Below, piece by piece: positions 29,725 through 61,200 of a stretch of DNA of 64,000 nt. The stretch comes from a virus. Below the pieces are notes generated by a model. That model was given only the letters and a program-made list of their open reading frames with translations. It was not told where the DNA came from and ran no database searches. Numbering within the stretch: position 1 is the stretch's first letter; each line of letters opens with the position of its first letter. Location of the stretch: positions 32,001 through 96,000 of IMG/VR virus record IMGVR_UViG_3300036790_000396, one strand, 5' to 3'. Position numbers and translations under genes: made by a program.

Positions 29725-29855
29725 CTTTCCCCTCACGGGCAGCCTGCCATCCGCAGGCGAGGGCGGCGCGGTGACCCGGGGCGACGCGGATTCCGCATGC
29801 GCCGGTCATGCCGAGGTCCCGGGTCCTGCGCCCCCGGAAGCTGCAGGAGGCACTG

Positions 29856-32800
29856 GTGACGACTGACATTCTCGCCCACTTCGAGGACGAGGGCGTGCGC
29901 AAGGCGGGGGGGCGTCCGCTGCAGCCGCTGCCCGTGGAGGACGGCCTGTACTACCGGGCTCACCATAAGGACGCGCCGTTCGGCCGCGAGCACGCCAGCA
30001 CGCAGAACATCGGCGAGCCGCCGTCCCCTGAGATGGCGAAGTACTGGGAACCGAAGCCGGGATACTCGGCCTTCTGGCATCCGCACCACCTGCGCCAGTA
30101 TCTCGATGAGATGGGCTGGTCAGATGCTGACGACATGAAAGGTCGGCGCGTGCTGATGTTCCGCGGTGCCCCGGTCGGTGAGGGCGCGGACGGAGAGCCG
30201 CGCGTGGTGCCGCATGCCGACAAGCCGGAAGCGTCGATGTCCCCGGGCCAGTTCCGCAGGCGGCTGGAGATCACGCCCGAGCCGGGCACGCGCTGGGACG
30301 ATCACACCTGGGGTCAGGGACCGTCCGGCCAGGTGGCAGATGACGGGTACCGCACTATCCTCGGGGCTGCCCGGCCCGGGCGCGGCCAGGAGACCTGCGG
30401 CTGCTGCCAGGGAAACGGCGAGCACCCTGACGGCACGGAATGCGACCGCTGCGACGGCTTCGGCCTGATGCACCGCGGCGACGACGCTCCGTACTGCCCC
30501 GGGCAGCCGCAGCCCCGCCGCCGGCACTGGCGCGAGGGTGCTGTCATCCCCGAGCCGAAGTGGGATCCGGAGCGCTATGAGAATGAGGGCCGCTCCTACT
30601 CCTCAGAGATGCTCGACAAGGGACACGAGTGGAAGCGCCAGGTCCGCAGGTCCCTCTCCCTGGGCACCATGACCAATGACGAGGCCCGCGAGTCCGGGTA
30701 TCACGGCCAGGGCCATGACCAGGGTGACGACGGGAGCGCGCGCCTGTCCTGGGAGCCGCTGCCGCAGCGCCTCTATCACGTCACCACTGACCTCGCCGGA
30801 GTCCGCGAGCACGGCCTGAAATCCCGCGACGAGCTGGGCCAGCAGCGCGGCGGCGGCCACGGCCTGGGCGGCGGGGAGGACGACACGATCTCCTTCACCG
30901 GTGATCCCGGCACCGCCCGCGGCATCCTGTCGTCCCTGCACGAGTTTCACCGCGCCCTCACCGGCCGCCTGTCCCCGCAGGCGATGTGGGACATGGCCCG
31001 CTCCGGCACCGGCGCCGCCCGTCCCTACCACGAGGGCATCGCGGAGAACTACCGGAGCGGGTGGAAGGACGGTGACCCGCTGCCCCTTCGCCTGCGCCAC
31101 GTCCTGAACGGGCGGGAGGGGGAACGCGAGCTGGCCACCCGCGAGGACATGGAACGCAGGAAAGGTCCCGGCTGGGAGCCCGAGGGCGAGCCCCTCATCG
31201 GAGATCACATGTTCAGCGAATGGTCCCGTCCCGCCTCGGAGGACTCCCGGCGCGAGTCAGCCGCCAGCCTCTACAAGGCATTCGCCTTCCACCGGATGCA
31301 CGCCGGCGGCCGGGAGGACCCGCTGTTCTTCGCGACGGACACGAAGTCGCTCGCGCGCAAGGATCCCCGCAACTTCGCCATCGTCCACGCCTCCCCCCGC
31401 CCCGGGGCCCGCGGCTACCGGGTCCACTCCCTGGGCGAGTGGCGCACCGCGGCCGGCGACGCCGTCAGCGTCCACCACTACGAGCGCCTGCGCGACAAGG
31501 GACAGCAGCGCGAGGCCGTTCGCGTCTCGGACGCTCCTCCTCCCGACCACGCGGAGTACTGCGGCCCCGGGGCGCGCACCGTCTGGCTGCACGAGGACGA
31601 CCGTGACCCGCGCTGCTCCGAGTGCGGCCACCGCGTCGCGGATCCCGCCACCGGGAAGCCGCCCGCCCGGACCCGCGAGCGTCCCCCTCGCCAGTGGGGT
31701 GCCGAGGTCGTCAACCGGCAGCGGGCGAAGCGCGCCCAGGGAGCACGCGGTCACTGGTCCCCGATGGACTGGGCAGCGGAGAACCCGCACCGGGCGGTCA
31801 CCCGCATCGCCCAGGACTCCCTCGCGGAGCAGTACCCGGACCTGGCCCGCACCATGCAGCTCCCGGACGAGCATGACATCTACCAGGAGAGCATGGAGGG
31901 GAACAGGCTGCTGCGCCGCATGCTCGGCCGCAACGGCTACCCGCAGCGGGAGGCTGCCCGGGCATTCGTCATGCCGCATGACCACCCGGAGGCCGGCGTC
32001 TCCCAGCCGGTTCTCGACGAGGACGGGCAGCCCGGCGTGGCACTGCTCCGTTCCCGGTTCACGCCCCTGATCCTCGCCCACGAGGCCGGGCACCTCCTGC
32101 ACGTCCACCACGCCGGGATCGACGCGGGCCCCTACTCCCACCGTCACGGGGAGGAGGCCGGGAGCAGGATGCCCGACGAGGCCATGCACGGCCCGGAGTT
32201 CTCCCGGCATTTCGCCGGAGCCCTCGATGCCATCTCGCCGGGCGCGGGCAGCGATCTCCTCCGCCACCGTGCCGATGCCGCCGCCCTGGTGAGCAACTAC
32301 CGCCGCCGGTTCCACAGTCTCCCCCCGGTGGAGGCGTCGATGCCCGAGCCCGACTACGACCCCTCCGAGCCGCTGCCCCAGGGACGCGGCCTCTTCTGGC
32401 GCCTGCACGACCCCGACGACCGCCCGCTCACGGAGCCGCACGCCCGCAGCCGCCGCGTGGACTGGGACTGGCTGAAGCCGGGTGAGACTGACCCGGACAC
32501 CGGCCTGAAGAACGTGCACATCCAGACGGGACTGCGCGGTTTCTCCGCATTCCAGTCACCGCACCAGCTGCACCGGTACATGGAGGAGTACGGCTGGTCG
32601 GAGGCGGGGCCGGACGGCGAGCACGCGTGGCCGGATTCCAGCCAGGTGGTCGCCTTCCACGGCAAGCAGGTGGGCCGGGGCGACGACGGCGAGCCTCTCG
32701 TCATCCCGCACCCGAACGAGAAGTGCTGCGGGCGCATCATCCACTCCGGCATGGACTGGGACGAGTTCGAGCACCACGTGCAGCGCACCATGGGCAGCGA

Positions 32801-35800
32801 CACCTCGTCTTCCCCCTGGAACCAGCAGCACGCGCACGAGAACTCCCCGGAGATCCGCTCGATCGAGCGGCATCATCACCCGCTGCGCCGCGGCCGGTTC
32901 TACCCGCGCGCGCTGCGCGGCGGCCGGTTCTACCCGCACGAGGGAGCGCTGATGCGTCACTTCGCGGCCGGCCCCGAGGACTACGGGATGGACCACCGGC
33001 CTGACACTGGCGGCCCCCCGCTGCATGACCTGACCGACAGCAGCGAGACGGACTGGAGCCTGCCCGCTGACTACTACGACCGGATGCACGAGTACAGCCA
33101 GAACTATGATGCCGATAACCGCTACGGCATCGCCGAGTCCGAGCGGAAAGTGCGCCGCTACCGGGGGCAGCCGGACAAGCGCGTGAGAGTCTGGCGCGCT
33201 GCGCCGGCCGTGAACCCGGAATCCCGTAACGGCAAGCGCGGCGAAATCAACCACGGCGACTGGATCGGGCTGAGCAGGCAGAAAGCCGTCATGGAGGCTG
33301 CGAAGGAGAACGACCCTCCGTCCGGCAGCCTGCCCGCAGACCATCCGCGCCGCTATCACATCTGGTCCGCGATGGTTCCGGCGAAGCACGTCCGCAACGC
33401 GGACGGGGATCTCACCGAGTGGGGCTATGCCGGCCCCGACATCAAGGACATCACGCACTTCAGCGAGTACTGCAGCCACCGCGCCCGCGCGAAGCGCGAG
33501 GGGATCCTCCGGCACTTCGCCGGGGATTCTCCCGCGACCGGGCACTACGAGGAGCCCACGGGCGGATCGCTCTACCCGGTGCGGCACGTGTTCACCGCCG
33601 TCCACCCGGACGGCACCCGCGCCGACCTCCGGTACGTCCTGTCAAAGTCGGGGCGGAAGGGCGCGATGGACTCGCGCTTCCATATTCCGGCCGGCTACGG
33701 CGAGTCCCTCGGAGTCCCGCTCGCGCGGGCCGCCCGGCGCATGCACCCGCAGGCGAGGATCACCGGCATGCCCGGCGTCGGCCAGGACTGGGACTCGCTC
33801 CTGCCCTCGGTCACCTCACTGCACCGCGGCCTGACGCTGCGCCTCCCCCAGCCGGATCACTCTTTCCTCCACGACGACTCGGTGCCGAAGTCACGCCGGG
33901 CCGCGCGCCTGATGGAGCTGATGGCGGGGCACCCGTCGATGCACTGGGCCAGCCGCCGCGGGCTGGCCGCCGCCGAGGAGGATTTCGGCAATCACGAGTT
34001 CCGCAGGCCCGGCGATACCCAGGTGATGCTCAGCGCGGACGCGCCGCGCCGTGAGGACGTGGAGACGGATCCCGAACGGCTGCTCGCGCAGGACGTCCAC
34101 GAGCACGCGGCCCCGCACTGGGAGGTGCCGCTGAGAGAAGGCGCCCCCGTGAGCGTCACCTCCGTGCGCTGGCGGCAGGGCAGCGGCCCGTGGAGCAAGC
34201 ACCTGTTCCGGGGCGGCCGGCCGTTCACCGCCGCCCGGCAGCGGGAGGGCGACGAGCGCGAGTGGAACGGCTACACGCTGCGCTACCGCACCGAGGACCA
34301 GGGCGAGCGCAAGCCCAGGCACGTCATCGAGGCGTTCCCCGCGGACGGCACGGTCGCCGGGCGGCTCACCTGGTACGGCGCCACCGGGAAGATCCACCGG
34401 ATCGAGACGGCCGGCCCTGAGGACGCCCGCGGTGAGTCCGGCGACGGCTTCGGCAACGGCGCCGATCACCGCCGCAAGGGGCTCGCGACCGCGATGTGGG
34501 ACTGGTCGCAGGAGATGACCCCCAGGGCCCGCCATTCCGGTGACCAGACCGGCATGGGCACGGAATGGGCCCGCTCCCTGCGCCGCAAGGGCGCCCGCCG
34601 TGACCCGGCGCTTCCCAACCCGCACACGGGCGGCGACGAGTGGTTTCATGGCAGCCCCTGGAAGTTCGGCCAGTTCGGGGAGAACAGCAGCACGCTGGAA
34701 TTCGAGGATGATCCTCATGACACCAGCCACTGGAACGCCCTCCTGGGCCACCATTTCGCGGCCAGCCACAAGACCGCCGAGGAGTTCGCGGGCGCCGAGC
34801 ACTCCGCAGATCCTGACGGCAGCTACGACGATGGCGAGCCGGCGCGGAACATCATCCACGCCCGGCTGCACCTCACGAACCCGAAGATCTATGCCTCCGA
34901 GCACGACATGGACCAGGAGGCATACGAGCACGAGTGGAAGGCCGGCAACCACCACGACCTCCATCATGAGCCCGAGCTGCGCGATGATGAATGGGGCGGC
35001 GAATACGATCCCGATTATGACGAGCGGCCCCCGACCTACCAGTACGCCGGGCACGGCGACCGGATGCGCTCCCAGGAAGAATCTGACCCGTCCTACTGGA
35101 ACCAGTCACGTTCCTACCACCCGTACGCCACCGGCTGGCTGAATACCCACCCGGACAAGTACTCCATTGCGCAGCGCTTCAGGGACCGGCTGAAGGCCAG
35201 GGGCCACGACGGCATCGTCTACGGCAACGAGTTCGAGGGCTCCCAGATCGGCAAGGGCGACAAGCATCACCTGGCGGCGATTGCCTTTCACCCGCACCAG
35301 GTCGACGTGACCCAGCGGCACAGCGGCCCGGAGTGCATCGAGCCGGAGGCAGCCGGGCGCTCCTGGCCGGGCAGCCAGCAGCACCCTCTCCCCGGCATGC
35401 CGCGCGTGAGCGTCCTGCGGCACTTCGCTTCCGGCTATTTCGATGAGGTGAACTGGGACGAGATCCACCCCGAGATCGCGGGAGAGCCCCTCCACCGCGG
35501 CGTCGGCGTGACCCTTCCCGGTCACCTGCACCGCTTCGTCCACGACAGGGCGCTGCCCCGCCAGCAGCGCGCGGAGGCGCTCCTGGACTACCTGGGCGAC
35601 TCGGAGAAGCACGGCTACGGACGGGATTCGCAGGCGGGCCTGGGCACTCACTGGTCGATGCGCCGGGACACGGCCGAGAACTTCGCCGAGAACGCCGCGA
35701 AGCACGAGGGCGGGGGCGAGCCCCACCCTGACTACGGGATGATCCCCGGCGAGCGCGAGCACGCCGTCTACACGCCGCCGCCGCGGCCCGCGTCCAGGCC

Positions 35801-36674
35801 CGGCACCGCCGTGGTCTTCCATTCCCGCGTTCCGGACCGTGACGACATCGACGAGCGCGCCGGCGACGACATGGGCGTCTACCACCCCTACTCGCATGAC
35901 GAGGCGGAGGTGCCCGTGCGCTCCGGGGCCGGGATCGGCCTGACCGGCGTCTCCTGGGCACCGGTCCACGACGAGGACGACCCGCGCTCGTGGGACGGCC
36001 CGCAGTACGAGCACCACGAGTTCGGGGAGCCCGACTACCGTACGGCAGCCCGGTCGGGGAGCATGCCGCACCCGGACTACGATCCGTCGGAGGAACTGCC
36101 CGAGGGGCGCGGGATCTTCTATCGGGCGCACGACATGCGCCGTCCGCTCGATGAGCAGCACGCCCGCAGCGCCCCGCTCAGCCACGGCTACCGCCCGTTC
36201 CAGCAGAACCCCGTCTTTTCTGTCGGCCAGCGCGGCTACTCCTCTTTCCGCAGCCCGCACATGCTCAGCTCGTACATGGACGAATACGAGTGGGAGCCCG
36301 CGAAGGACCGGGAAGCAGTTGCCTTCCACGGGAAGCAAGTCGGGGTCGGGGAGGATAACGAGCCGCTCGTAGTCCCGGCCCCGGATCCGCATTGCTGCGG
36401 GCGCGTGATTCATTCCAGGATGCCGTGGGAGGAGTTCGAGCGGAAGACGTGGCCCTCGCACCTTAATGACCCGGAGTCGGAGGAGCACGGCTACCATGAC
36501 GTCGGCGCGCTCCCGCAGCCGTTGCGCCAGCCCTGGGCACCGGAACGCTGGGTGCCTGGTGCCCGCCCCTGGGAAAGCCCGGGGGACCGGTCGGAGCGCC
36601 GTCACCAGGAGAAGGAAGACCGCCGCCGCGAGCGCCGGGCATCCGCGCTGACCCTTACGGAGGCCATGGCATGA
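29856..36674 (+). CDS. Giant polyvalent protein (about 2270 aa): multiple ART-like domains, CXXCXGXG Zn finger, zincin peptidase, GNAT acetyltransferase
   Basis: GTG 29856 with AGGAGG; HEAGH...HGPEF; RRKGLATAM; FHGS...HFA...GHDGIVY.N.FEG; LHRG...HWS...EAEV; three YR.H...GYS.F...DGEP repeats. Confidence 0.85.
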   Translation: MTTDILAHFEDEGVRKAGGRPLQPLPVEDGLYYRAHHKDAPFGREHASTQNIGEPPSPEMAKYWEPKPGYSAFWHPHHLRQYLDEMGWSDADDMKGRRVLMFRGAPVGEGADGEPRVVPHADKPEASMSPGQFRRRLEITPEPGTRWDDHTWGQGPSGQVADDGYRTILGAARPGRGQETCGCCQGNGEHPDGTECDRCDGFGLMHRGDDAPYCPGQPQPRRRHWREGAVIPEPKWDPERYENEGRSYSSEMLDKGHEWKRQVRRSLSLGTMTNDEARESGYHGQGHDQGDDGSARLSWEPLPQRLYHVTTDLAGVREHGLKSRDELGQQRGGGHGLGGGEDDTISFTGDPGTARGILSSLHEFHRALTGRLSPQAMWDMARSGTGAARPYHEGIAENYRSGWKDGDPLPLRLRHVLNGREGERELATREDMERRKGPGWEPEGEPLIGDHMFSEWSRPASEDSRRESAASLYKAFAFHRMHAGGREDPLFFATDTKSLARKDPRNFAIVHASPRPGARGYRVHSLGEWRTAAGDAVSVHHYERLRDKGQQREAVRVSDAPPPDHAEYCGPGARTVWLHEDDRDPRCSECGHRVADPATGKPPARTRERPPRQWGAEVVNRQRAKRAQGARGHWSPMDWAAENPHRAVTRIAQDSLAEQYPDLARTMQLPDEHDIYQESMEGNRLLRRMLGRNGYPQREAARAFVMPHDHPEAGVSQPVLDEDGQPGVALLRSRFTPLILAHEAGHLLHVHHAGIDAGPYSHRHGEEAGSRMPDEAMHGPEFSRHFAGALDAISPGAGSDLLRHRADAAALVSNYRRRFHSLPPVEASMPEPDYDPSEPLPQGRGLFWRLHDPDDRPLTEPHARSRRVDWDWLKPGETDPDTGLKNVHIQTGLRGFSAFQSPHQLHRYMEEYGWSEAGPDGEHAWPDSSQVVAFHGKQVGRGDDGEPLVIPHPNEKCCGRIIHSGMDWDEFEHHVQRTMGSDTSSSPWNQQHAHENSPEIRSIERHHHPLRRGRFYPRALRGGRFYPHEGALMRHFAAGPEDYGMDHRPDTGGPPLHDLTDSSETDWSLPADYYDRMHEYSQNYDADNRYGIAESERKVRRYRGQPDKRVRVWRAAPAVNPESRNGKRGEINHGDWIGLSRQKAVMEAAKENDPPSGSLPADHPRRYHIWSAMVPAKHVRNADGDLTEWGYAGPDIKDITHFSEYCSHRARAKREGILRHFAGDSPATGHYEEPTGGSLYPVRHVFTAVHPDGTRADLRYVLSKSGRKGAMDSRFHIPAGYGESLGVPLARAARRMHPQARITGMPGVGQDWDSLLPSVTSLHRGLTLRLPQPDHSFLHDDSVPKSRRAARLMELMAGHPSMHWASRRGLAAAEEDFGNHEFRRPGDTQVMLSADAPRREDVETDPERLLAQDVHEHAAPHWEVPLREGAPVSVTSVRWRQGSGPWSKHLFRGGRPFTAARQREGDEREWNGYTLRYRTEDQGERKPRHVIEAFPADGTVAGRLTWYGATGKIHRIETAGPEDARGESGDGFGNGADHRRKGLATAMWDWSQEMTPRARHSGDQTGMGTEWARSLRRKGARRDPALPNPHTGGDEWFHGSPWKFGQFGENSSTLEFEDDPHDTSHWNALLGHHFAASHKTAEEFAGAEHSADPDGSYDDGEPARNIIHARLHLTNPKIYASEHDMDQEAYEHEWKAGNHHDLHHEPELRDDEWGGEYDPDYDERPPTYQYAGHGDRMRSQEESDPSYWNQSRSYHPYATGWLNTHPDKYSIAQRFRDRLKARGHDGIVYGNEFEGSQIGKGDKHHLAAIAFHPHQVDVTQRHSGPECIEPEAAGRSWPGSQQHPLPGMPRVSVLRHFASGYFDEVNWDEIHPEIAGEPLHRGVGVTLPGHLHRFVHDRALPRQQRAEALLDYLGDSEKHGYGRDSQAGLGTHWSMRRDTAENFAENAAKHEGGGEPHPDYGMIPGEREHAVYTPPPRPASRPGTAVVFHSRVPDRDDIDERAGDDMGVYHPYSHDEAEVPVRSGAGIGLTGVSWAPVHDEDDPRSWDGPQYEHHEFGEPDYRTAARSGSMPHPDYDPSEELPEGRGIFYRAHDMRRPLDEQHARSAPLSHGYRPFQQNPVFSVGQRGYSSFRSPHMLSSYMDEYEWEPAKDREAVAFHGKQVGVGEDNEPLVVPAPDPHCCGRVIHSRMPWEEFERKTWPSHLNDPESEEHGYHDVGALPQPLRQPWAPERWVPGARPWESPGDRSERRHQEKEDRRRERRASALTLTEAMA
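32883..32937 (+). repeat. Imperfect 30-bp-period tandem duplication (LRRGRFYP / LRGGRFYP)
   Basis: ctgcgccgcggccggttctacccgc ... ctgcgcggcggccggttctacccgc. Confidence 0.8.
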
Positions 36675-39600
36675 GCAGCCGGCAGGCAGCGTGGACGCCG
36701 TCCGAGCGCATCTTCGGCCGAACATGGGGCCTGGATCACCGGCTGTTCAGCGGGGACCGCATGCGCCCGGAAGTCCGCAGGACACTCCTGGCGCGGCTGG
36801 ACAGCGCGCTGGAGCCCGTCCTCGGCCCGCAGTGGCAGGTCTTCACCCGCGCCTACCTCATGGGCTCGCAGGCGTCCCGCTGGACCTCCCCGGAGCTGGA
36901 GGGCAACGGGGACCTCGATGTCATCCTCGCGGTCGACCCGGGTCATCCCCACGAGGACGCCGGGCACATCAACGGCATCCTGCGGCGCACGTTCGACCGC
37001 GGGGACTGGCACCCGCCGTTCGATCCCCGGGGCACCTACGACCTGACGGGCTACGTCAACCCGCTGGCCTGGAACGTCACGGACATCAGCCCCTACGCTG
37101 CCTATGACCTGACCGGAGACCGCTTCGCCGTGGACCCCCCCGACCTTCCCGACTGGTCCCCGGACCAGTTCCCGCAGGGAAAGGCCCTGCTGCAGGAGGG
37201 CCGGGCTCTCGGTGCCCAGGCCCGCGCGCTGCTGCGGATGCCCGAGCCGTTCCGCTCGCAGGAGGCGCGGCGGCTGTGGGACTACATCCGCTCCGGCCGC
37301 GACGAGGGATTCGCTCCCGGCGGGCTGGGCTGGCAGTCTGCCGGGAATGTACTCGAAAAGATGCTCGACCAGATGCCCGGCAACCTCGTCGGCCGCCTGA
37401 AGGAAGCCGTCTACGGCAGGCAGGTCACTGCCGGCGCCTACGACTGGGCTGCTGACGAGGGGCCGTACACCTGGGAGGAGATCGGCGACCGGTACCCGCG
37501 CGTCTACGGCGAGGACTCCGGCGACAGCGAGGGAATCGGCTGGGCGGCCTCGCACCTGTACCACGACCGTCCCGGCCATTCGCAGGACGACAGCACGGGC
37601 GAGGAGTCCGCCGACGACATGGAGTTCCACCCGCGGACGGTCGACCCGGCCCGGATTGACTACATGCGCTCCGAGCCGGGAGACCCGCGCGTGACCCGGG
37701 CCCGCAGGGGATATGAGAGCCAGCAGCCGGAAAAGGTCCCGCCGCTGATCCTGGTGCACCGTAACGGCGTGTTCATGCCAGCCGACGGCCATCACCGGGC
37801 AGAGGGCGCGGCCAGGGCCCGCAAGCCGGTGCGTGCCTACGTGGCCTATTCCCCGCACGATGCCGAGCCGTTCTCCGACGGGGAGCGGGGCCCGTTCAAC
37901 GGTGCCGGGACCAGGGAACGGCCCCCGCTGACGGACCAGGACGGCCGGCAGTTCCGGATATCCTACCCCGGGTTCCCGCATACGGCCGAGACGGAGATCC
38001 CGCCGCGGGAGGCGTCGCTCCTGAGCCACTTCGCGGCCTGGGAGGACGAGTACGACGATGACCATGGCGACGGCCAGGATCCCGATCGCTACGTCGAGTG
38101 CGACCAGGGCCACCGCCACTGGGGCGCCGCCGGGGCCGCTGGCCTCCTGATCCGCCATAAGCGCCCCTCGGGCGAGCACGAGTACCTGCTGCAGAAGCGG
38201 TCCCCGTACGTGCAGCACGGCGGCACCTGGTCCACGCCCGGCGGTGCCCTGGGCCACGGCGAGACGCCCGAGGAAGGCGCGGTGCGCGAGGGCGAGGAGG
38301 AGCTTGGCGGGCTGCCCGACGATCTCTGGCACAGCCACACGAGCCATGACGAGCACGGCGGATGGAAATACTCGACTGTCGTCATGGACTCCCCGCGCCG
38401 GTTCGAGCCTGAGGGCGGCGGCGAGAGCGACTGGGAGCACGGCGGCCACGGCTGGTTCACGCCGGAGGAGATGAAGGACCTCCCGCTGCACCCCGGATTC
38501 GCGGCGAGCTGGGACCGGGTCCGCAAGTCCGGGGCCCTGCGCCAGGCCGTCGTCGATCCCGCCAGCCTGCCCCGCGACCAGCTGAACGGGATCACGCGTG
38601 CCCGCGTCTACTACCCGCCGGGCCAGTCGGAGGACCGGCGCCTCCTCGACGTGGCGAGCAGGCCGCGCCCCGGCACCCGCGTGTGGCGCGGCGAGCTGCG
38701 CCCGGAGGGGGAGAACCCGGGGAACGTGCAGTCGGTCGGCATGCACTGGACCGTGAACCCCAGGGCGCTGCTGCTGCGCGGCAATGAGCCGGGGTGGAGG
38801 CAGCACGTCTGGCAGGGCGTCGTCGATGACTTCGGCTCCCAGGCGTTCCCCCGCAGCCATGATGTGTGGAGGGCGGTGCGCAGCGGCGACGGGGAGCACG
38901 AGATCCGTTTCCGCCCCGGTGCCCGGGTGCGCCTGGAAGGCGCCTACGTGTCCGGCAGCGGCACGGGGGACCGCCGGGAGCCGATGGGGATCCTGGATCC
39001 CCTCCACCCGGAGAGTACCGACCCGCGCTGGGAATGGCACCCGATGGACCGGCCCGTGACCGTCCGGCACCGCCCCGGGGCGCCCGGCTCTCCCTCGCGG
39101 GGAGGTGCTGACTACGCGTCCCTGGGCATCAGCCACGAGGGCGTGGCCCACGATGACTCCAACCCGTACCTGATGGTGGCCGTCGTCCCGCCCGAGCATG
39201 TCTCCGCCGCCCTCGCGGAGTCGATGGAGCCCCTTACCCGCCATGACCCGGAGCCGCCGGAGGAGCATCACGTCACGATGCTGTACCTGGGCAAGGAGAA
39301 GGACCACACCCCGGCGCAGCGCGCGAAGCTGCCCGGCCTGGTCCGGGAGTGGGCGTCCTGCCAGCAGCCGTTCACCGTCCGCGTGCAGGGCGCGGGGACG
39401 TTCGCTAACGAGGGCGAGCACACCGTCCACGCCCTGGTCGACATGCCCGACGGCCATCACCTCCGCACGTCACTGGAGGAGCACCTCGCCGGCCATGGCA
39501 TCTCGTGGCCGCGGGATCACGGGTTCGCCCCGCACCTGACGCTGGCCTACTCGCAGCAGCCGGTCCGGTTCCTGCCCAGTGTCCCGCGCTCGGAATGGAC

Positions 39601-39679
39601 CGCCGGCCAGGTGCACTGGTGCCGCGGGAAGGACTGGCAGCCTGTCCCGCTGGGCCGCGCGCCTGCTAAGGTTAATTGA
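36671..39679 (+). CDS. Multi-domain protein: Pol-beta nucleotidyltransferase, ParB/Srx, NUDIX, ART-like, 2H phosphoesterase
   Basis: MGS...GDLDV; ADGHHR; GGALGHGETPEEGAVREGEEELG; VWRG..MHWT..EHEI; HVT (39269) and HLT (39533). Confidence 0.88.
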   Translation: MSSRQAAWTPSERIFGRTWGLDHRLFSGDRMRPEVRRTLLARLDSALEPVLGPQWQVFTRAYLMGSQASRWTSPELEGNGDLDVILAVDPGHPHEDAGHINGILRRTFDRGDWHPPFDPRGTYDLTGYVNPLAWNVTDISPYAAYDLTGDRFAVDPPDLPDWSPDQFPQGKALLQEGRALGAQARALLRMPEPFRSQEARRLWDYIRSGRDEGFAPGGLGWQSAGNVLEKMLDQMPGNLVGRLKEAVYGRQVTAGAYDWAADEGPYTWEEIGDRYPRVYGEDSGDSEGIGWAASHLYHDRPGHSQDDSTGEESADDMEFHPRTVDPARIDYMRSEPGDPRVTRARRGYESQQPEKVPPLILVHRNGVFMPADGHHRAEGAARARKPVRAYVAYSPHDAEPFSDGERGPFNGAGTRERPPLTDQDGRQFRISYPGFPHTAETEIPPREASLLSHFAAWEDEYDDDHGDGQDPDRYVECDQGHRHWGAAGAAGLLIRHKRPSGEHEYLLQKRSPYVQHGGTWSTPGGALGHGETPEEGAVREGEEELGGLPDDLWHSHTSHDEHGGWKYSTVVMDSPRRFEPEGGGESDWEHGGHGWFTPEEMKDLPLHPGFAASWDRVRKSGALRQAVVDPASLPRDQLNGITRARVYYPPGQSEDRRLLDVASRPRPGTRVWRGELRPEGENPGNVQSVGMHWTVNPRALLLRGNEPGWRQHVWQGVVDDFGSQAFPRSHDVWRAVRSGDGEHEIRFRPGARVRLEGAYVSGSGTGDRREPMGILDPLHPESTDPRWEWHPMDRPVTVRHRPGAPGSPSRGGADYASLGISHEGVAHDDSNPYLMVAVVPPEHVSAALAESMEPLTRHDPEPPEEHHVTMLYLGKEKDHTPAQRAKLPGLVREWASCQQPFTVRVQGAGTFANEGEHTVHALVDMPDGHHLRTSLEEHLAGHGISWPRDHGFAPHLTLAYSQQPVRFLPSVPRSEWTAGQVHWCRGKDWQPVPLGRAPAKVN

Positions 39680-44374: not shown

Positions 44375-44646
44375 CAGCGGTTTCCTTTCCTCAGTCTCGC
44401 GATGATCTCCCGGCCCTCATCCGTGAGGCGGTCCGTGAAGACCAGGATTCCCCGGCGCTCGGTCAGGCCACCCCTTTCCAGGCGCTGCAGCAGCGTCATG
44501 GCTGCCATCGGCCCGATGACGGCATCTCCCCTGTCGTGCTTCATCGAGCGCACGAGAACGGTTTCTTCCTCGCCCTCGCTGCGGGCGACGGCGCGGAGCG
44601 CCTGGAGCATCCTGGCCGTGATGACGGTCCCGTTGCGGCTTCTCAC
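44374..44646 (-). CDS. small winged-helix-like protein
   Basis: TLLQRLERGGL...LTDEGRE; GTGA coupling. Confidence 0.55.
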   Translation of the reverse strand: MRSRNGTVITARMLQALRAVARSEGEEETVLVRSMKHDRGDAVIGPMAAMTLLQRLERGGLTERRGILVFTDRLTDEGREIIARLRKGNR

Positions 44647-44870
44647 AGCGCTACCCGCACGATCCGCGTCTTCACCCAGTACCAGCCGTCGAAGTTCCAC
44701 TCGACCTGGCCGCCGGCGCAGTGGTACCGCTCGTGCGCCTGCGCCTTCAGCTGCACCTGGCGGATCGTCTCGTCCGGTCGCGTGTCGCCCGACCGCAGCA
44801 GGTGCTCGCGCAGCTCCCCGCGCGTGAGGCGCACCAGGTGATCCTCCGGCACGCTGATGGTGCTTCCCAT
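44643..44870 (-). CDS. hypothetical protein
   Basis: AAGGAG RBS. Confidence 0.7.
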   Translation of the reverse strand: MGSTISVPEDHLVRLTRGELREHLLRSGDTRPDETIRQVQLKAQAHERYHCAGGQVEWNFDGWYWVKTRIVRVAL

Positions 44871-44983
44871 TACTTCTCCTTCAGGATGCGGTCGCTCAGC
44901 CGGCTGAACACCATCATGGCGAGGGTGCCGCCCGCAGCGACAAGAGCGAGGACGGCGAGGATGCGCGCGCTTCCTTCCCTTTT

Positions 44984-45005
44984 ACTGTACCAATGTTTAT
45001 TGATA
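44984..45005. promoter_or_regulatory. Operator TACCAA-tgttta-TTGATA with leftward extended -10 TGgTACAGT
   Basis: Divergent junction. Confidence 0.8.
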
Positions 45006-45065
45006 AAAGCTAGTCATTGCCGAAGCCGCCCCGGAAGGACAGAAGACCACCGTGAGGGAGAACGC

Positions 45066-46574
45066 ATGGACGAGCAGCGCGGCGCCCTGCTCCGGGCTAT
45101 CACCGCGGCGCGCACCGGGGGCGATCAGGCCGCAGCCGTCGCTGCCCTCGACCGGCATGACCGGATGCAGCGCCAGGCGGCAGCCGGAGACCGGGAGCTT
45201 GACCTTTCCGCGACCGCTGTCAGGCAGGCGCTGGCCCCGGTCGCGGTGCACGAGCACCACACCGCCGCCACCGACTGGCTCGGCGAGATCCCCGAGCCGT
45301 CCCCGGACTTCCGGACGGCGATGATCGCCCAGGCCGGCTCCTGGTACCGCAGTGTCCCCGCCGAGGTCCGCGCCGACGGCGAGGAGTTCGCCGAGCAGGC
45401 GCGGCTGCGCGCCTACACCGCCGCCTCCTCCTACGGCGACGCCGCGCTCCCGGCCCGGCGCGAGTTCCTGCAGGCGGTCGGCTACCTGTCCCGCGGCGCC
45501 GCATCGGGCCTCCCGCAGGTCGACCAGGTCATCGACCCGAACAACCAGCCGTCCCCCACGCCGTACCCGACCGAGGTCTTCGACAACTTCGCGCCGCAGC
45601 AGAACGATTTCAACGCGCCGGTGGAGTCGCCGGACCACCAGAGCCAGGTTTCCAGCGAGCAGGCCCCCATGCTGCAGCAGGTCCAGCAGCAGGACGGGTC
45701 CGGATCCGGGTTCGGCAGCGGCCCCGAGCTGCCCGACCAGCACGACACGGCGATGGACACCCAGTACGGCTACGCCGAGGTGCCGCTGGGCCCTCCCGGC
45801 GTCATCCCCACCGTCCCCGCGGCCACCGATCAGGGCGGCGCGATGCCGCAGGGCCAGAGCACTCCCAACCCCGTCGCCGGGTCGGACCAGGTCGCCGATG
45901 CGGAGCCTCTCGATGACGAGGACGTGCAGCCGGGAGCCCGGAGCGCGTCGCTGACGCCCCCGGACTGGCAGGGGTACCGCTGGCGCACCGCCATGGCGCA
46001 GCCGCCGCTGGACGCCCCCTGGCACGCGCGCTGCGGCTCCCTGCACTGGCCCACGGACCCGTGCGGGAGCCAGGGGCACACCGCCGCCGTCTCCTGGGCG
46101 CAGACCGCCGAGACGTTCGCCCGGACCGCCTCCCTCCAGGCAGGGGGCTTCGCGGAGGGCACGCAGGTGATGGCCGCCGCCCGGATGAGCGTCCCCGCCG
46201 TCGCCTCGCACCACAACCAGCTCCTGGGCGCCTTCACCGCCGCCGCCCGCACCGAGGACGAGGTCCACTGGCTGCACGGCTACCTCGCCGCCGTCCGCCC
46301 CCTCCTCGCCTCGGCCGGCAAGTGCTCCGGCTGCGGCGGCTCCTGCCGCCAGGACCAGGACAAGTGCGAGGCCTGCCGGCAGAAGGAGAAGACCGCTTCC
46401 CTCCGCGCGCTCGCCAACCAGTACATCAAGCAGCGCGGGGACAAATGGGTCATCCTGCAGAAGGGCACCGGCAAGGTCCTCTCCCACCATGACTCGCAGG
46501 AGAAGGCGGAGGCCAGCTTCCGTGCCATGATGCAGTCCAAGCACGGCTCCCGGGGGCGCCTGGATTTTCAGTAG
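45066..46574 (+). CDS. Probable head/prohead-associated low-complexity protein
   Basis: GAGGGAG RBS; Pro/Gln/Asp-rich; CSGC..CEAC; recurrent R/K-x-A linkers; lies between terL and the portal gene. Confidence 0.75.
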   Translation: MDEQRGALLRAITAARTGGDQAAAVAALDRHDRMQRQAAAGDRELDLSATAVRQALAPVAVHEHHTAATDWLGEIPEPSPDFRTAMIAQAGSWYRSVPAEVRADGEEFAEQARLRAYTAASSYGDAALPARREFLQAVGYLSRGAASGLPQVDQVIDPNNQPSPTPYPTEVFDNFAPQQNDFNAPVESPDHQSQVSSEQAPMLQQVQQQDGSGSGFGSGPELPDQHDTAMDTQYGYAEVPLGPPGVIPTVPAATDQGGAMPQGQSTPNPVAGSDQVADAEPLDDEDVQPGARSASLTPPDWQGYRWRTAMAQPPLDAPWHARCGSLHWPTDPCGSQGHTAAVSWAQTAETFARTASLQAGGFAEGTQVMAAARMSVPAVASHHNQLLGAFTAAARTEDEVHWLHGYLAAVRPLLASAGKCSGCGGSCRQDQDKCEACRQKEKTASLRALANQYIKQRGDKWVILQKGTGKVLSHHDSQEKAEASFRAMMQSKHGSRGRLDFQ

Positions 46575-46603
46575 CCGCCGGATGGCAGCCCGCTGCCGCC
46601 GGC
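46562..46603 (+). other. Putative programmed -1 ribosomal frameshift signal
   Basis: In-phase G GAT TTT (46562-46568) just before TAG; hairpin 46577-46603; -1 frame open to 47101. Confidence 0.65.
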
Positions 46604-47101
46604 CCGCTCAGCCGCGAGGCCGTCTCCCGGGAGACCGAGCATCACGTCACCCAGTACGACCCCGAACGTCTCCGCGGCCACCTGGAGAGCGAGCACTCCA
46701 GCTACGGACTGCTGGGGCGCACGGTCCCCAGCGATCCCGCAGGGATGGAGCAGGCGCACCGCAGCGCGCACGAGCGCGAGGACCCGTTCTTCGGCGCGTG
46801 GCACGGGAACACCGAGCCCGCTGACCCGCAGGACTTCACGGCGATGCACGCCGAGCACCCCGACGAGGAAGACCACTACCGCGCCTACGAGACCGGCGAG
46901 CACCAGCCCCACGGCCTCGGCGCCCACCTGCTGAACGATCACGGCTACACGCCGCAGGCGGTCGAGGAGTCCTGGAAGGGCTACGACCCGGACGAGCCCC
47001 GCGACCCGTCGCTGGGCTTCCACCGGCTGCGCGAGATGCACCGGCAGGCGCACGACTACGAGCACGACGTCTACGGCGTGAACCCCTGGAGGAGCCAGTG
47101 A
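46568..47101 (+). CDS. His-rich -1 frame extension of the 45066 protein (ORF track starts it at 46745)
   Basis: 59 sense codons with no start codon upstream of ATG 46745; contain the SREAV linker and LRGHLESEH motif. Confidence 0.65.
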   Translation, partial: SVAAGWQPAAAGPLSREAVSRETEHHVTQYDPERLRGHLESEHSSYGLLGRTVPSDPAGMEQAHRSAHEREDPFFGAWHGNTEPADPQDFTAMHAEHPDEEDHYRAYETGEHQPHGLGAHLLNDHGYTPQAVEESWKGYDPDEPRDPSLGFHRLREMHRQAHDYEHDVYGVNPWRSQ

Positions 47102-49026
47102 CCGAGCCGGAGCGGTCGTTCCTGCGGCACATGAGGCAGGCGGCCAGCGAGCTGCCCCAGGTGCAGCAGGTCACCGACCCCAACAACGTCCCGACGCCGC
47201 AGGCGGACATGCTGCCGCCGGATGTCATGTTCCCCCTCGACCCGGCGTTCCAGGTCCGGTGGGAGACCGGGCCGCAGGGTGCCCGGCCCGTCCGGGCCCA
47301 GGCCGCTGCGGGCTCCAGTCCCTACCGCCCCGAGGGCGCCCCTCCCGGCTACGGCCCCGACCCGCGCCTCGTCGACACCGTTCCCGCGCTCACCCTCCCC
47401 ACCGGCGAGCCGGTCGGCGACCAGGACGGCGACCTGTGGGGCGGCCGGACCCCTCCCGGCGCCCCCGCCGTCTCCAACGCCGGCAAGGGCGCCTGGGGTG
47501 ACGGCCCGATCGCCAGCCGCCGTGTGCGCCGTACCGCGCGTACCGAGCACGCGGAATGCGGCGGCTCCGTGGAGAACGGGCGCTGCCGGAGCTGCGGGGA
47601 GGAAGCCGCCCCGTGGATGTTCGGGCAGCGCGGCAAGGCTTATACCGTGGTGCGGGGCATTGAGGCCCAGGACATCGATCCCGGTCTCAGTTCCGAGGAT
47701 GACGAGTTCCTGGGCGGCCACGGCATCCAGGCATCCCGCCGTGTGCGCCGCACTGCGGACTTCATGTCCCGGCCGCTGCAGTCGACCGACGACCTGAACG
47801 CGCCTTACAACTCGCCGCAGACGACGCCGGACCCGTTCTCCTCCAACGCGAGCCCGCAGTCCGGTGACTACCAGGCCGGGTTCTCCGAGGGCCAGCAGGA
47901 CCGCGGCCGGGGCGACGCCCCTACCTTCAGCGACAACTCCAGCCACGTCTCGCCCTACGTGCAGGGCTACGCCGCGGGCTACGGCGCCGCGCCGCCGTCC
48001 GTGCCGCAGGACGTTCCCGGTTCCGCAGGCGGTGATTCCGGCCAGGGAGTGAACGTGCAGGAGGCCCAGCGGGAATGGCAGACCGCGCAGGCCGGCCTGC
48101 GCCGCCGCGCCCATGACTTCACCGAGTCCGGGCGGGAGAACGCCGCGCATTCCCTCGGCCCGGACGACAAGCTGCCCGTCAACAGCCTGCAGGACCTGAA
48201 GAACGCGCACCGCCGTGCCCACCAGGTGGAAGGCGAGCCCGAGTCCGCCGTGGACTCCTACCTGAGCCGTCTCGACGACCAGTACGGCTACCACCCCGGG
48301 AAGGAGTCGTCGCTGCGCGTTTCCGCCGCCCTCGTCGCGCAGTCCGAGACCCGCAGCGGGGACTTCCGCAAGGGCTACCGGTTCGCGTCCCGGTGGAAGC
48401 CGGGGCAGAAGCTTGCCTCCCGCGGCCCCGCCGCGTTCGAGGCGGGGATGTATGCCGCCATGTGCGACGCTCCGGGGCCGCAGCGCAGGGCGTGGATCGG
48501 CGCCCACCAGCGCCTGTCCCGCCGGCAGCCGGATGCCGTGTGGCGCCTGGAGCGCACCCTGTCGTTCACCCGGCAGGCCGTGCGCGACAGCCAGCTGCTG
48601 AAGATGGCCCGTGACGGCTACTTCCCGCGGCTGGCCGGCGTCTCCACCGACCTGATCACGGACGGCCCCGGCACGAGTCCCGACCCGATGGGCCAGACGC
48701 CGCTGAACGGGCCCGGCACTCCGCCTCCGTCCGGCGGCGGCGAGAACCCGGCCCGTCCCGGCGGAATCCCCCCGTACCAGGGAGGGCAGCCCGTCGTCGC
48801 CGACGACGGGCTGGGGCCCGCCCAGGAGCCGCCCCACGAGAACGGCCCCTTCACGCAGACGTTCTCCGGCCGCCAGCCCGGCAACATCGACCTCGCGCCG
48901 GCGGCTCCCAACAACGCGGACGGCCCCGGCTACGAGAATCCCGGAGCCTATCCCTCGGACATGCGCCGGGCGCAGGCATTCCGGGCGCGGGTCCAGGCAT
49001 CGCTGCGGGCGCGCCAGCCGGCCTGA
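47098..49026 (+). CDS. Probable head/prohead-associated low-complexity protein
   Basis: GTGA coupling; ASRRVRRTA twice; shares LPQV.QV.DPNN with the 45066 protein. Confidence 0.8.
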   Translation: MTEPERSFLRHMRQAASELPQVQQVTDPNNVPTPQADMLPPDVMFPLDPAFQVRWETGPQGARPVRAQAAAGSSPYRPEGAPPGYGPDPRLVDTVPALTLPTGEPVGDQDGDLWGGRTPPGAPAVSNAGKGAWGDGPIASRRVRRTARTEHAECGGSVENGRCRSCGEEAAPWMFGQRGKAYTVVRGIEAQDIDPGLSSEDDEFLGGHGIQASRRVRRTADFMSRPLQSTDDLNAPYNSPQTTPDPFSSNASPQSGDYQAGFSEGQQDRGRGDAPTFSDNSSHVSPYVQGYAAGYGAAPPSVPQDVPGSAGGDSGQGVNVQEAQREWQTAQAGLRRRAHDFTESGRENAAHSLGPDDKLPVNSLQDLKNAHRRAHQVEGEPESAVDSYLSRLDDQYGYHPGKESSLRVSAALVAQSETRSGDFRKGYRFASRWKPGQKLASRGPAAFEAGMYAAMCDAPGPQRRAWIGAHQRLSRRQPDAVWRLERTLSFTRQAVRDSQLLKMARDGYFPRLAGVSTDLITDGPGTSPDPMGQTPLNGPGTPPPSGGGENPARPGGIPPYQGGQPVVADDGLGPAQEPPHENGPFTQTFSGRQPGNIDLAPAAPNNADGPGYENPGAYPSDMRRAQAFRARVQASLRARQPA

Positions 49027-49030
49027 CAAG

Positions 49031-49065
49031 GGAAAAGCCCCGCCGTGAAGCGGGGCTTTTCCTTT
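49031..49065. terminator. Bidirectional intrinsic terminator
   Basis: GGAAAAGCCCCGC / GCGGGGCTTTTCC stem with A and T tracts, between convergent genes. Confidence 0.9.
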
Positions 49066-49137
49066 CGCAAGACGGGGATCTCGCATTACTGATGGGGTCT
49101 TACTGCCCTGCCAGCGTAGGACGCGGCGGGGGAATGG

Positions 49138-57674: not shown

Positions 57675-58192
57675 CAGGGCTCCTCTCCCGCGCTCAGCTT
57701 CCGGGAGGCGAGTCCGGTTTCCGCGAGGAACAGCCGCAGGAGCGCCTGCATGTCCATGATCTCCCGCCGTGCCGCCGCCGCGTGCTCCCTGAACCGGTCC
57801 TGGTCGAAGTCCGTGACCAACTCGGCATGATGGAGCGAGCCGGCCTTGCGGCTCGCGTCGGCGAGGGCCCTGTGCGCCGTGTCGAGCACTCCCGCGAGGG
57901 TGCCCGCGCGTACCGCGTCCTGGTCGAGGAACTCCAGGTCGCTCTCGCTGTCCTCGGTCCAGTCTGCGTGATGCCTGCGGAGCGTGCTGATCTCCGTGCC
58001 CGCTCCTTCGTCCGGGACGTGATCCCGGATGGTGTAGTCGCCCGCGTGCACTTTCCGGTAATTCCCGTCGGTGCCGATCGCGTAGACGTCCAGCCCGGCG
58101 GAGACGATGACGACGACTGCGGCCCCGGCTCCCGCGTTCTTCTGCAGGTCGATGATGTCCCCGGATTCGGGGACCCTGGTCTGGTAGCTCAT
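57674..58192 (-). CDS. hypothetical protein, probably leaderless
   Basis: Likely start ATG 58192, 7 nt after the TAATAT -10. Confidence 0.75.
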   Translation of the reverse strand: MSYQTRVPESGDIIDLQKNAGAGAAVVVIVSAGLDVYAIGTDGNYRKVHAGDYTIRDHVPDEGAGTEISTLRRHHADWTEDSESDLEFLDQDAVRAGTLAGVLDTAHRALADASRKAGSLHHAELVTDFDQDRFREHAAAARREIMDMQALLRLFLAETGLASRKLSAGEEP

Positions 58193-58199
58193 GCCCTGC

Positions 58200-58221
58200 A
58201 TATTACCAATAAATCTTGGTA
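58200..58221. promoter_or_regulatory. Perfect operator TACCAA-taaatc-TTGGTA with leftward TGgTAATAT
   Basis: Divergent junction. Confidence 0.85.
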
Positions 58222-58267
58222 TATGCCACTCGTCTGCGGCCCGTCCTCGGAAGCAACGGGAGGCACG

Positions 58268-61200
58268 ATGCCACAGCAACGTTTTGTCCGTATAGCGCAT
58301 GATCCCGGAGACCCGCAGCTTTGTTCCCATTGCTTCGGGCCTGAGACGAGATACCTCACGCCGGATGGCGTCAAGACCTTGGGCGAGACGGTCGGGACTG
58401 CCCAGCGGGTAATGACCGCGGATTCCCTCCAGTCTCACGACGGGCGCTGGGCCGATGCTGAGATCCGCTCGTTCGGCGTACAGCAGCTGCACCGGATCAC
58501 CCTGAAGCGCAACAAGGTAACCAAGGTGATCCGGGCGACTGCCGGGCACCGCTGGCTGGTGCGCCGCCCGGATCGCATTGTCACGACGGATCGTCTTCTC
58601 CCGGGCCACCGGCTGGCCACTGCCCGGCTCCCGCGCCAGGAGCTGGCGATGGACCGTGAGGGCATCTGCCATGGTTTCTTTTTCGGCGACGGAAGCCTGC
58701 GCCGCACGGAGAACGCTGATTACGGCAAAGTGATCCTGTGGGGGCAGAAGCGCGAGCTTGCTTCTTATTTTGAGGAAATAGCAGGTCGTCCCGGCGTCGA
58801 GAAGCACACTCCGAATGGCGTTCCCGGTCTTGCGTTCCAGGCCGGGATGAAGGGCTATGCCAAGTCGCTGCCGCTGCTGACGATGCCGCCCGAGTACCTT
58901 TACGGCTGGCTGGCCGGCTACTTTGCCGCAGACGGGTGGAGCGGGGGCACCAACGCCTCTCTCTCGTCTGCGGTGCGCGCTCACCTGGAGCACGTACGCG
59001 ATATCTGCACGCTGCTCGGCATAGGTACTTACGGTATTACCTCGAAGACGCGCACTGGATTCGGGAAGGAATCTGAGATCTTCGAGGTCGGGTTCAGCCA
59101 GTCCGACCTCAATACGGATTTTTTCCTTCGCAGTGATCACCGCGAGGCCCGCAGGCCGCCGCCCCAGGAACGTTTCGGATGGACAGTCGTCTCCGTCGAG
59201 CCAGATGCTGAAGAAGAAGTCTTCTGCGCGATTGTTCCGGAGAATGAGCGCTTCGCGCTCGAAGACAACATCCTCACCATGAACTGTCCTTTTTGCGGCT
59301 CCGGTCAGATTACGGGCAGATCTGACGGGGGCATAGACTGTGCTTTCTGCGGACAAAGCTTCATAGTTCGGGTACAGCCCGCTTTCCCAGGCATGCCGCA
59401 AGCGCCCGGAATGGGCGCTCCCACCGATGCCGGGCCCGAGGGCATCCCGGTGGGCCTTCCCCCCGGTGCCGGGCCCGAGGGCCTTCCCCCCGGTGCCGAC
59501 GGCGGCATGCCTCCCGGCGGGGACGAGGAAGGCGGCGGCTTCCCGCCCGGCGGTGACGAGGACGAAGAGGCCCCTCCCGGCGCGGATGACGAAGACGAGG
59601 ACGACGGTGCTCCTCCCTTCGCGAAGAAATCATCGCGCCGCCTGGGCGCCCACGAGCATCCTGATGACGACCTGCGCCGTCACCTCGCCGAGGAGCACGG
59701 CCACGGCTGGATCGAGTACCCCGGCGTCAGCGAGATCAGCCGCATCCACGATGCCGACCACCGCAACCGCGGCGCCGCCGCCCACCGCGGGGACATCGCC
59801 CCGCCGCTGCAGTCTCTTCCCGAGCCTGCGGCCAGGCACTGGCCGGCCCACCGCCGCGAGCGCTTCGACGATCCTCGCCTCGGCGACAGCTACGGCGACC
59901 GCTTCGGGGCTGAGGATGTTGCGGACCAGTACCGCCGCGAGACGCACGGACAGCCTTCCCCGGACTCGGACTACGGCCGGTTCGCCCCCGCGCCCCCGGA
60001 GCGCCGTCACCTGTCCGTCCGCCGCTACCGCACCATTTCCGGCGACGTGCTCCCCGAGGACGCCTACATCCGCCATCTCGCCGTCCTGCACTCCGGCGGC
60101 AGCTCCCGCGTGCTGGCGCTGCTGCGCCGCGAGGCGGCATCCGGGGGCGACGACGGCAGGCTGCCCCCCCGCAGCGTCATGACGCAGCGCCAGCACCTGC
60201 AGGCGACCCGGGACATGCGCGACCGTCTCGCCGCGTCCGGGTTCCCGATGGACGCCCCGTCAGGCGACGAGGACATGCGGATGAACCCGTCGTGCAGGCT
60301 GGAGACGGGGCATCACATCTCATTCGGCGTGGAGCTGCGCGGCGGGAAGCACTCGATGTTCATCACCCACCCGGCGGACATGGGCCAGGGCCGCACGTTC
60401 CTGGAAGTCGGCCTGGGGCGTGACCCGTCCCGCGTGGCGGATCTCGCCCGCCGCGAGCTGGGCTGCCCTCATGTTGCGGGGGAAATGACGGAACAGCTCC
60501 GCGGCCACGGCGACGAGCCCCTCAGGCAGCCGCCCTCGGCCCGGTCGGTGAGGCACGAGGCGGAGGGCACGCAGCCGCGCGAGGCGTCCCTGCGGTACCG
60601 TGCCGCGTTCGACTGGGACAATGCCACCGAGGACGAGGCCGACCGTGAGTTCCAGCGCCGTGAGGACGGGATGCAGGATGCGGTAGAACGCCACGGCGTG
60701 GACAGCATCCTGCGTCCCAACCGCGTGAACCGGATAGAGACCGGTCACGAGATCTCTTTCGAGCACCATCCCGCGGAGGGGGAGGGAGATGATTACTGGA
60801 CGGTCGGCGTCAACCATCCGGCTGACTCCTGGACCGGGGATGCGGAGCGCTACCCGCGCTACTACTGGAAGGGCTTCCGCGGTCCTGACGACGACGTGGT
60901 CCGCCAGGCGGTGCAGCACCTGCGCTCTCCCCGGACGATGGACGTGATGCGCGAGCAGTCCCGCCGTGCGATGAGCCGCGAGGCATCCCTGCGGCGCCGG
61001 GCCGACCTGGATTACGACGAGGTCCCTGAGGGGCACGCGATGTCCAAGCGGGAGCAGATCAGCCGGCTGCGCGAGATGCGCGGGCGCCTGGAGGACCACG
61101 GGATCCGGATGCTGCCGTCTGATAGCGGCATGGCTCCCTACTTCGACCTGGAGACCGGGCACCGCATCCTCCTGGGCCTTTCGCAGCAGCACGGGGACTG

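Follow-up and report, generated by a model that had tools for sequence, protein, structure and literature searches.

The window analysed here is a 64,000-nucleotide stretch (positions 32,001 to 96,000) of the IMG/VR virus record IMGVR_UViG_3300036790_000396, which measures 146,944 bp and has a GC content of 68%. Between its genes for the terminase large subunit and the portal protein lies a gene, here called gene A, whose 3' end reads ...CGC CTG GAT TTT CAG TAG. An open reading frame displaced by one base (-1) continues past the stop codon and encodes a further domain, module B, and gene C follows with a start codon of its own (Table 1). A sequence-only reading of this DNA had proposed that ribosomes slip on the G GAT TTT heptamer near the end of gene A, so that module B is attached to a head-region protein outside the familiar setting of tail assembly chaperones. 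Judging from the comparison of this locus with its relatives, we consider it very likely that a programmed -1 frameshift at 46562–46568 does add module B to the gene A product, and that it does so outside the tail-chaperone context.

Table 1. Features of the gene A, module B and gene C locus. Positions are those of the window; the parts of gene A are given as residues of its product (amino acids, aa).
Feature	Position	Strand	Remarks
Gene A	45066..46574	+	0 frame; 502-aa short isoform, C-terminus ...GRLDFQ
Gene A, predicted domain	residues 1-142		Helical N-domain, confident in the AlphaFold2 model
Gene A, predicted segment	residues 146-293		Disordered linker (AlphaFold2 model)
Gene A, predicted domain	residues 295-440		Cys/His-rich, with CxxC pairs (AlphaFold2 model)
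Gene A, predicted domain	residues 444-492		Small alpha/beta domain (AlphaFold2 model)
G-rich, Shine-Dalgarno-like run GGGGG	46552..46556	+	5 nt upstream of the heptamer; candidate upstream stimulator
Slippery heptamer G GAT TTT	46562..46568	+	In phase with gene A
0-frame stop TAG	46572..46574	+	One sense codon past the heptamer
Hairpin GCCGG-AT-GGCAG-CCCG-CTGCC-G-CCGGC	46577..46603	+	Starts 8 nt after the heptamer; candidate downstream stimulator
Module B, -1 frame extension	46565..47101	+	178 codons counted from the re-read Phe, plus stop
Predicted A-B junction peptide			LDFSVAAGWQPAAAGPLSR
Start-less part of the extension	46565..46744	+	No ATG, GTG or TTG; invariant pair H39/H44; two of module B's eight predicted helices
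ATG used by gene callers	46745..46747	+	Stand-alone 118-aa product P0123, without half of the first His motif unit
Gene C	47098..49026	+	642 aa; own GTG start overlapping the module B stop (GTGA); GGAGGA at 47088-47093

The start of gene A is supported by an identical 502-aa protein (P0003, 100% identity) and by the aligned N-termini of its homologs. At its other end, the heptamer and the hairpin were found just as the sequence-only reading had described them. The codons CTG GAT TTT CAG TAG span 46560–46574, and GGATTTT occurs in phase only once in the ~32,500 codons of the genome, in which TTT makes up 7% of Phe codons and GAT 19% of Asp codons. As a bare string GGATTTT is not rare (three copies in the window against 1.4 expected); the weight of the heptamer comes from its phase, its position and its conservation. 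G GAT TTT is non-canonical at the P site, and the canonical heptamers A AAT TTY and G GGT TTT occupy the same place in relatives. The hairpin downstream (-22.2 kcal/mol, z = -2.0, with 6 of 200 shuffled sequences equally stable) belongs to the top 0.6% when all 34-nt windows within 3 kb are compared, and it is identical in an independent contig, L073. By analogy with dnaX, the G run upstream of the heptamer may also have a stimulatory role. A search of 46300–46900 against Rfam matched nothing. Transcriptional slippage was considered and rejected, since a run of only four T is too short for it.

The open stretch of the -1 frame extends from 46493 to 47101; an ATG, GTG or TTG first appears in it at 46745, 59 codons past the heptamer. 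The predicted products are therefore the 502-aa A protein and a 678-aa A-B protein, joined at ...RLDF/SVAAGWQ.... Directly after 46575 the third-position GC signal moves from the frame of gene A to the -1 frame, where it stays at 0.83–1.0. Gene callers, however, begin at the ATG at 46745, which is preceded by a weak purine-rich stretch, and report P0123 at 118 aa. A and B might accordingly be separate genes expressed with no recoding, the 59 start-less codons being an untranslated remnant of a recent split. We consider this very unlikely in view of how the start-less stretch has evolved. Its third-position GC content in the -1 frame is 0.83–0.93, and from the fourth residue onwards its translation aligns with residues 150–205 of P0124, a 1267-aa protein encoded on another contig in which modules B and C are fused. 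Within it are two histidines that are invariant and form pairs with the following motif; since this first His pair is encoded in the start-less part, the annotated 118-aa product would be incomplete. In L073, which encodes an identical A protein, the stretch differs from that of the window by a 3-nt in-frame insertion and two single-nucleotide polymorphisms, both at third positions of the -1 frame. Lastly, the start-less arrangement recurs in most of 22 diverged protein clusters, always behind a slippery heptamer. The claim that these codons are coding in spite of having no start codon was thus borne out. An ATG at 46582, in the +1 frame, was rejected because the pattern of third-position GC is wrong for that frame.

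The same stretch was compared between two of the relatives, L004 and L013 (L denotes loci and P proteins throughout). At 34 of 43 codons the two encode the same residue, 12 of these codons with synonymous changes, and their nucleotide differences fall 6/4/17 on the three codon positions. By this measure the start-less stretch is under purifying selection at the protein level.

Homologs of gene A number about 150; all are metagenomic, many lie on contigs of 100–166 kb, and none comes from a cultured phage. A DNA similarity search of 44600–49100 against phage and plasmid records returned nothing, nor did tblastn of A and B against phage isolates or a pattern scan of IMG/VR with module B. Junctions were read at the DNA level in loci obtained by exact protein look-up and by scans of IMG/VR and JGI metagenome contigs. 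Conservation of the heptamer in homologs, which the sequence-only reading had left to be checked, was seen in the nucleotides of 18 distinct relative loci, where it takes the form G GAT TTT, A AAT TTY or G GGT TTT. Of 120 homologous protein clusters, 22 end 1–4 residues after LDF or PNF, and 17 of the 22 after exactly one. The nucleotides just upstream of the heptamer (GCCGCCT) are conserved in the relatives, which also carry a GGGAG, GGAGG or AGGAG element 5–7 nt before it and, 5–8 nt past it, short GC hairpins of differing sequence.

Three arrangements were distinguished. Arrangement 1, with a short product in the 0 frame and a long one in the -1 frame, comprises the window, L001, L002/3, L004/5, L013 (with five identical copies from other samples, L042–46), L016, L074 and L075. 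Here the 0-frame stop lies 3–15 nt past the heptamer, which is G GAT TTT, A AAT TTT, A AAT TTC or, in L074, G GGT TTT. The -1 frame past the site runs for 171–832 codons in the eight arrangement 1 loci read at the DNA level, and in seven of these the first canonical start is 38–173 nt beyond the stop (+38 nt in L016); the exception is L075, where a GTG overlaps the stop. L074 deserves separate mention: with G GGT TTT (4160–4183, peptide LGF) standing one codon ahead of the stop, its site has been naturally upgraded to a canonical heptamer.

In arrangement 2, the two parts are fused in frame in proteins of 950–1430 aa (L007, L008, L018, L019, L020, L021, L035, L036, L056 and L058). The sequence-only reading had named such in-frame fusions among the findings that would speak against a frameshift. 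The ten that exist turned out to support it: all ten keep CTG GAT TTT or CCA AAT TTT in phase, and in all ten a -1 stop lies within 1–10 codons of the heptamer. At random positions in the fused frames only ~14% have a -1 stop that close, the median distance being 27–97 codons. By contrast, in arrangement 3 the genes are separate: A ends in ...EYHVAPVGGK without a heptamer, and an overlapping ATGA or GTGA provides the start of the next gene. We also noted a locus, L006 (2730–7804), in which A ends early without a heptamer and a 1267-aa protein begins in the -1 frame, at a GTG that gives a 28-nt overlap with the end of A; in this protein an additional N-terminal part is fused to module B, a Cys-rich insert and C.

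The fused loci also show where coding in the -1 frame begins. The -1 extension of L004 aligns, from its residues 1–3, with the in-frame continuation of L018 and L058, and the peptide that follows the site (F-S-[VL]-[TA]-A... or ...AAEAA) is encoded by arrangement 1 in the -1 frame and by arrangement 2 in the 0 frame. Since the residues after the heptamer are conserved and match those of the fused loci, coding begins at the heptamer. This bears on a further explanation, namely that module B is translated on its own, either from a non-canonical start such as CTG or by termination and reinitiation after the TAG. In-frame CTG codons are present in the start-less stretch, and starts near the stop do occur in some relatives (the overlapping GTG of L075, the start at +38 nt in L016). 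In the window, however, no near-cognate start is close to the stop, and initiation of either kind would account neither for the conserved FS[VL][TA]A... residues directly after the heptamer nor for the retention of the rare GAT TTT or AAT TTT codons and the immediate -1 stops of the fused loci. We therefore hold independent translation of module B to be very unlikely.

The heptamer might alternatively be conserved for another reason, as an LDF or PNF peptide (for example, a protease site) or as a signal in DNA or RNA, with the frame break a tolerated indel and no fusion expressed. The (S/G)RLDF peptide is indeed conserved in the in-frame fused proteins as well, and so is the GCCGCCT upstream. 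Selection on the peptide would, however, favour GAC TTC in these genomes: the Asp-Phe pair is spelled GACTTC 47 times, GATTTC 17 times and GATTTT three times. Although Asp, Asn and Phe codons seldom end in T, it is such codons that stand at the heptamer in every locus read that carries it. Moreover, the peptide at the site varies (LDF, PNF, LGF) and slipperiness is kept in each case; in L074 the replacement of Asp by Gly improves slipperiness, and selection therefore acts on the RNA and not on the LDF peptide. The positions of the stops, one codon away in the 0 frame in 17 of 22 clusters and at most ten codons away in the -1 frame in 10 of 10 fused loci, fit the production of isoforms. With these observations at hand, conservation for a reason other than frameshifting appears highly improbable.

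The same picture could arise if the gene were in truth fused in frame and an indel had been introduced by sequencing or assembly, as there is a short T run at the site and in-frame fused homologs exist. The junction of the window is nevertheless identical in three assemblies: the window record, the JGI contig L073 and a Logan assembly of another run. The same configuration is found in 22 protein clusters from many samples, and several of the other lineages were assembled repeatedly (L002/L003, L004/L005, L013/L042–46). The junction is therefore not a sequencing error, and we regard an indel artefact, which the sequence-only reading had named among the possible refutations, as practically excluded.

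Several points weigh against a programmed frameshift. G GAU UUU departs from the X XXY YYZ pattern, and we know of no bacterial example of a shift on it. The upstream G-rich element is 5–7 nt from the site, closer than the 10 nt seen in dnaX. The ATG at 46745 could also yield a stand-alone 118-aa product, and the GTG overlapping the stop makes independent initiation possible in L075. The hairpins of the relatives are modestly above background, with a median at the 17th percentile of local windows, and their combined signal (Fisher p = 7.5e-4) comes from non-independent loci. RNAalifold found no consensus structure in 16 junctions, because the hairpins differ in register and sequence. The phage is uncultured and the case is built from sequence comparison; no usable match to A, B or C came from Pfam, PHROGs, NCBIfam, Foldseek, VIA-align or the ESM Atlas.

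If module B is indeed added by -1 frameshifting, some or most ribosomes would decode GAU UUU CAG and stop at UAG to give the 502-aa protein. The remaining fraction would slip back one base while the P site holds GAU and the A site UUU, and would go on in the -1 frame for another 177 codons, to 47101, yielding a 678-aa protein made of A and the helical, His-rich module B. On slipping, tRNA-Phe could re-pair perfectly on UUU one base back, and tRNA-Asp would shift from GAU to GGA, with one Watson-Crick position and a possible G-U. The downstream hairpin probably promotes the slip, and the upstream G-rich stretch and the nearby stop may help. The site would be ancestral to the gene family, and its two parts would be expressed in three ways: as a 0-frame short form with the long form made by a -1 shift, as in the window; as a 0-frame fusion, where a -1 shift that immediately meets a stop yields the short form, as in dnaX; or as two separate, translationally coupled genes from which the site has been lost.

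One of the closest known systems is Escherichia coli dnaX (tau/gamma, on A AAA AAG), in which, as proposed here, tandem -1 slippage gives a longer and a shorter isoform. The fused relatives share with dnaX a near -1 stop (1–10 codons), an upstream G-rich element and a hairpin 5–8 nt downstream. The polarity of the window is reversed, however: the short form is made in the 0 frame, and the -1 frame runs on for 177 codons, so the shift does not truncate the product. This family further differs from dnaX in its heptamer and in the spacing of the Shine-Dalgarno-like element, and has no sequence relation to it. The 3'-terminal frameshifts of T7/T3 gene 10A/10B and of Listeria phage capsid and tail genes resemble the present case in that some copies of a late-region gene product carry a C-terminal extension. 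Gene A, by contrast, is not a major capsid gene, and its extension is an independent domain of 177 residues, or a protein of 570–830 residues in relatives. The lambda G/GT tail assembly chaperone likewise has a -1 heptamer shortly before a stop, conserved across diverged phages and setting a ratio of short to long product. Chaperones account for 2397 of the 2476 frameshifts annotated in SEA-PHAGES actinophage genomes (PMC10885494). Lambda G/GT lies between the tail tube and tape measure genes, whereas gene A lies between the terminase and portal genes and matches no chaperone family in PHROGs or Pfam; gene A is thus not a tail assembly chaperone. In polarity the window is like T7 10A/10B and lambda G/GT. 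The comparative evidence strongly supports the proposal of a C-terminally extended isoform made by -1 frameshifting outside the chaperone context.

As had been stated in the sequence-only reading, G GAU UUU is an established viral slippery sequence: the experimentally studied -1 site in RNA2 of pea enation mosaic virus 2 (PEMV2, an umbravirus), G_GAU_UUU_UGG_UAG, is followed by a stop one codon downstream, and this stop matters for its efficiency (PMC5009743, PMC4737148). The window shares with PEMV2 RNA2 the non-canonical heptamer, the stop one codon on and a nearby hairpin, and the re-pairing outlined above follows the geometry that has been described for the PEMV2 site. PEMV2 is a eukaryotic plus-strand RNA virus that is translated by 80S ribosomes and makes an RNA polymerase by its shift, so the likeness is one of mechanism by analogy only. 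Use in a prokaryotic setting of the umbravirus-type G GAU UUU, its stop lying one codon on, would, if true, be the first to our knowledge. A limited literature search found no published description of the site or of the gene family. What sets the system apart is a non-canonical heptamer in a prokaryotic setting and the use of one conserved site for both extension and truncation.

The A-domain tree intermingles arrangements 1 and 2, for which at least 4–5 changes are needed, and places arrangement 3 in a single clade. Its class "other" is inflated, since it takes in rows from contigs ending before the junction. One ancestral site may have served as a two-way isoform switch, with repeated single-base indels swapping the isoform made in the 0 frame, the shift producing an extension in one case and a truncation in the other. 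We put this forward tentatively, as a possibility to which we incline a little less than to its opposite. If it holds, such swaps would be tolerated most easily at slippage near 50%, when the ratio of short to long form would survive the change. That the family has flipped polarity repeatedly suggests that the ratio is not extreme.

We next consider what gene A, module B and gene C might be. The AlphaFold2 model of gene A has a mean predicted local distance difference test score of 72.5. Foldseek returned no match to this model at E <= 0.001 in PDB and BFVD, a profile of gene A matched nothing among PDB sequences, and genes A and C had no usable match in the ESM Atlas. Pfam, PHROGs and NCBIfam matched neither A, B and C nor the extensions of the relatives, with one exception: a weak match of the small C-terminal domain of gene A to a PHROG of unknown function. 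Module B was modelled as all-helical with eight predicted helices (predicted TM-score 0.69), and its alignment shows 12 invariant histidines in paired H-x3/4-H motifs. Foldseek found nothing for this model, and its VIA-align Z scores of at most 4.6 are at noise level for helical models. B-type modules are confined to the clade of the window (L001, L002/3, L006). No family or fold match gives a function to gene A or to module B.

Homologs of gene C occur in other phages as the frameshift extension of A or as its in-frame C-terminal half. A second frameshift, between B and C, was rejected because no slippery site is present there and C is equipped with GGAGGA and a GTG. We also noted that the disordered regions of A (45510–45600) and C (47152–47250) share the motif A-S-x-L-P-Q-V-x-Q-V-x-D-P-N-N-x-P-x-P, followed by P..V.F. 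The core of this motif (...LPQV.QV.DPNN...) was found nowhere else in the 147-kb genome, which suggests that A and C have a common binding partner.

The terminase large subunit gene upstream of gene A (26350–29448) was assigned by a weak match and probably contains an intein; the portal gene begins at 61462 and runs to 64842. The genes for the protease and the major head protein are further downstream than the portal gene, the latter (phrog_2522, E = 6e-98) at genome positions 122104–123123, 43 kb from gene A. Gene A is therefore not the major capsid gene. "Head region" is a fair description of where gene A lies, and its possible link to the virion derives from that location only. Gene A might encode a head protein and module B might be a packaged cargo, with a sub-stoichiometric long form controlling its copy number, as the sequence-only reading had it. 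The two isoforms may act together, and the long form might tether the downstream module to an assembly joined by A; given the position of gene A between the terminase and portal genes, this assembly may be the head.

A module of ~40 residues, PFAGY.DF.DC...DK.DP.AYCG.IKH (in shorter form PFAGY..DF..C..AYCG.IKH), opens the frameshift extension in several relatives, and an XkdF-type prohead protease (PF14550) and small scaffold-like proteins also begin with it. It was noted in L013 (6524–6700), in L004 (5620–5770) and in the proteins P0139, P0147, P0149 and P0150. It is absent from the genome of the window, and no Pfam, PHROG or NCBIfam model corresponds to it. The module may be an uncharacterised docking module for head assembly, and its presence in the extensions of relatives hints at a part in that process.

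Other observations concern the surroundings of the locus. The terminase gene (26350–29448), a gene for a 1227-aa unknown protein (57782–61465) and the portal gene (61462–64000, continuing to genome position 96842) each match LAGLIDADG_3, and inteins are therefore probable in all three. Directly downstream of the terminase gene, 29808–39679 encodes a 2288-aa protein with no confident Pfam match and then a 1002-aa protein with NUDIX and 2H-phosphoesterase (LigT-like) domains, both of them giant proteins of many domains. A replication module lies upstream of the packaging genes, with a primase/helicase at 8661–11150 and a DnaE-like DNA polymerase III alpha at 14270–18484, the latter 34% identical to Gordonia phage homologs. 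Two further canonical heptamers were noted in phase near the ends of open frames: GGGAAAG at window position 12975 (genome 44975), where 53 codons of a 388-codon open frame remain, and GGGAAAA at genome position 11461, with 32 codons left of a 210-codon frame.

In this phage group, current gene calls miss the start-less coding stretch and report a 118-aa truncation in its place; at least 22 soil-metagenome protein clusters are affected in this way. With three heptamer variants and three genomic configurations of one site, the family is a natural comparison set, and it could be used to test how frameshift efficiency in high-GC bacteria is determined by heptamer identity, by the nearness of the stop and by the elements that flank the site. 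For the phages themselves, two proteins of unknown function are linked between the terminase and portal genes, and their coupling, covalent or stoichiometric, appears important enough to have been kept by three different genetic solutions.

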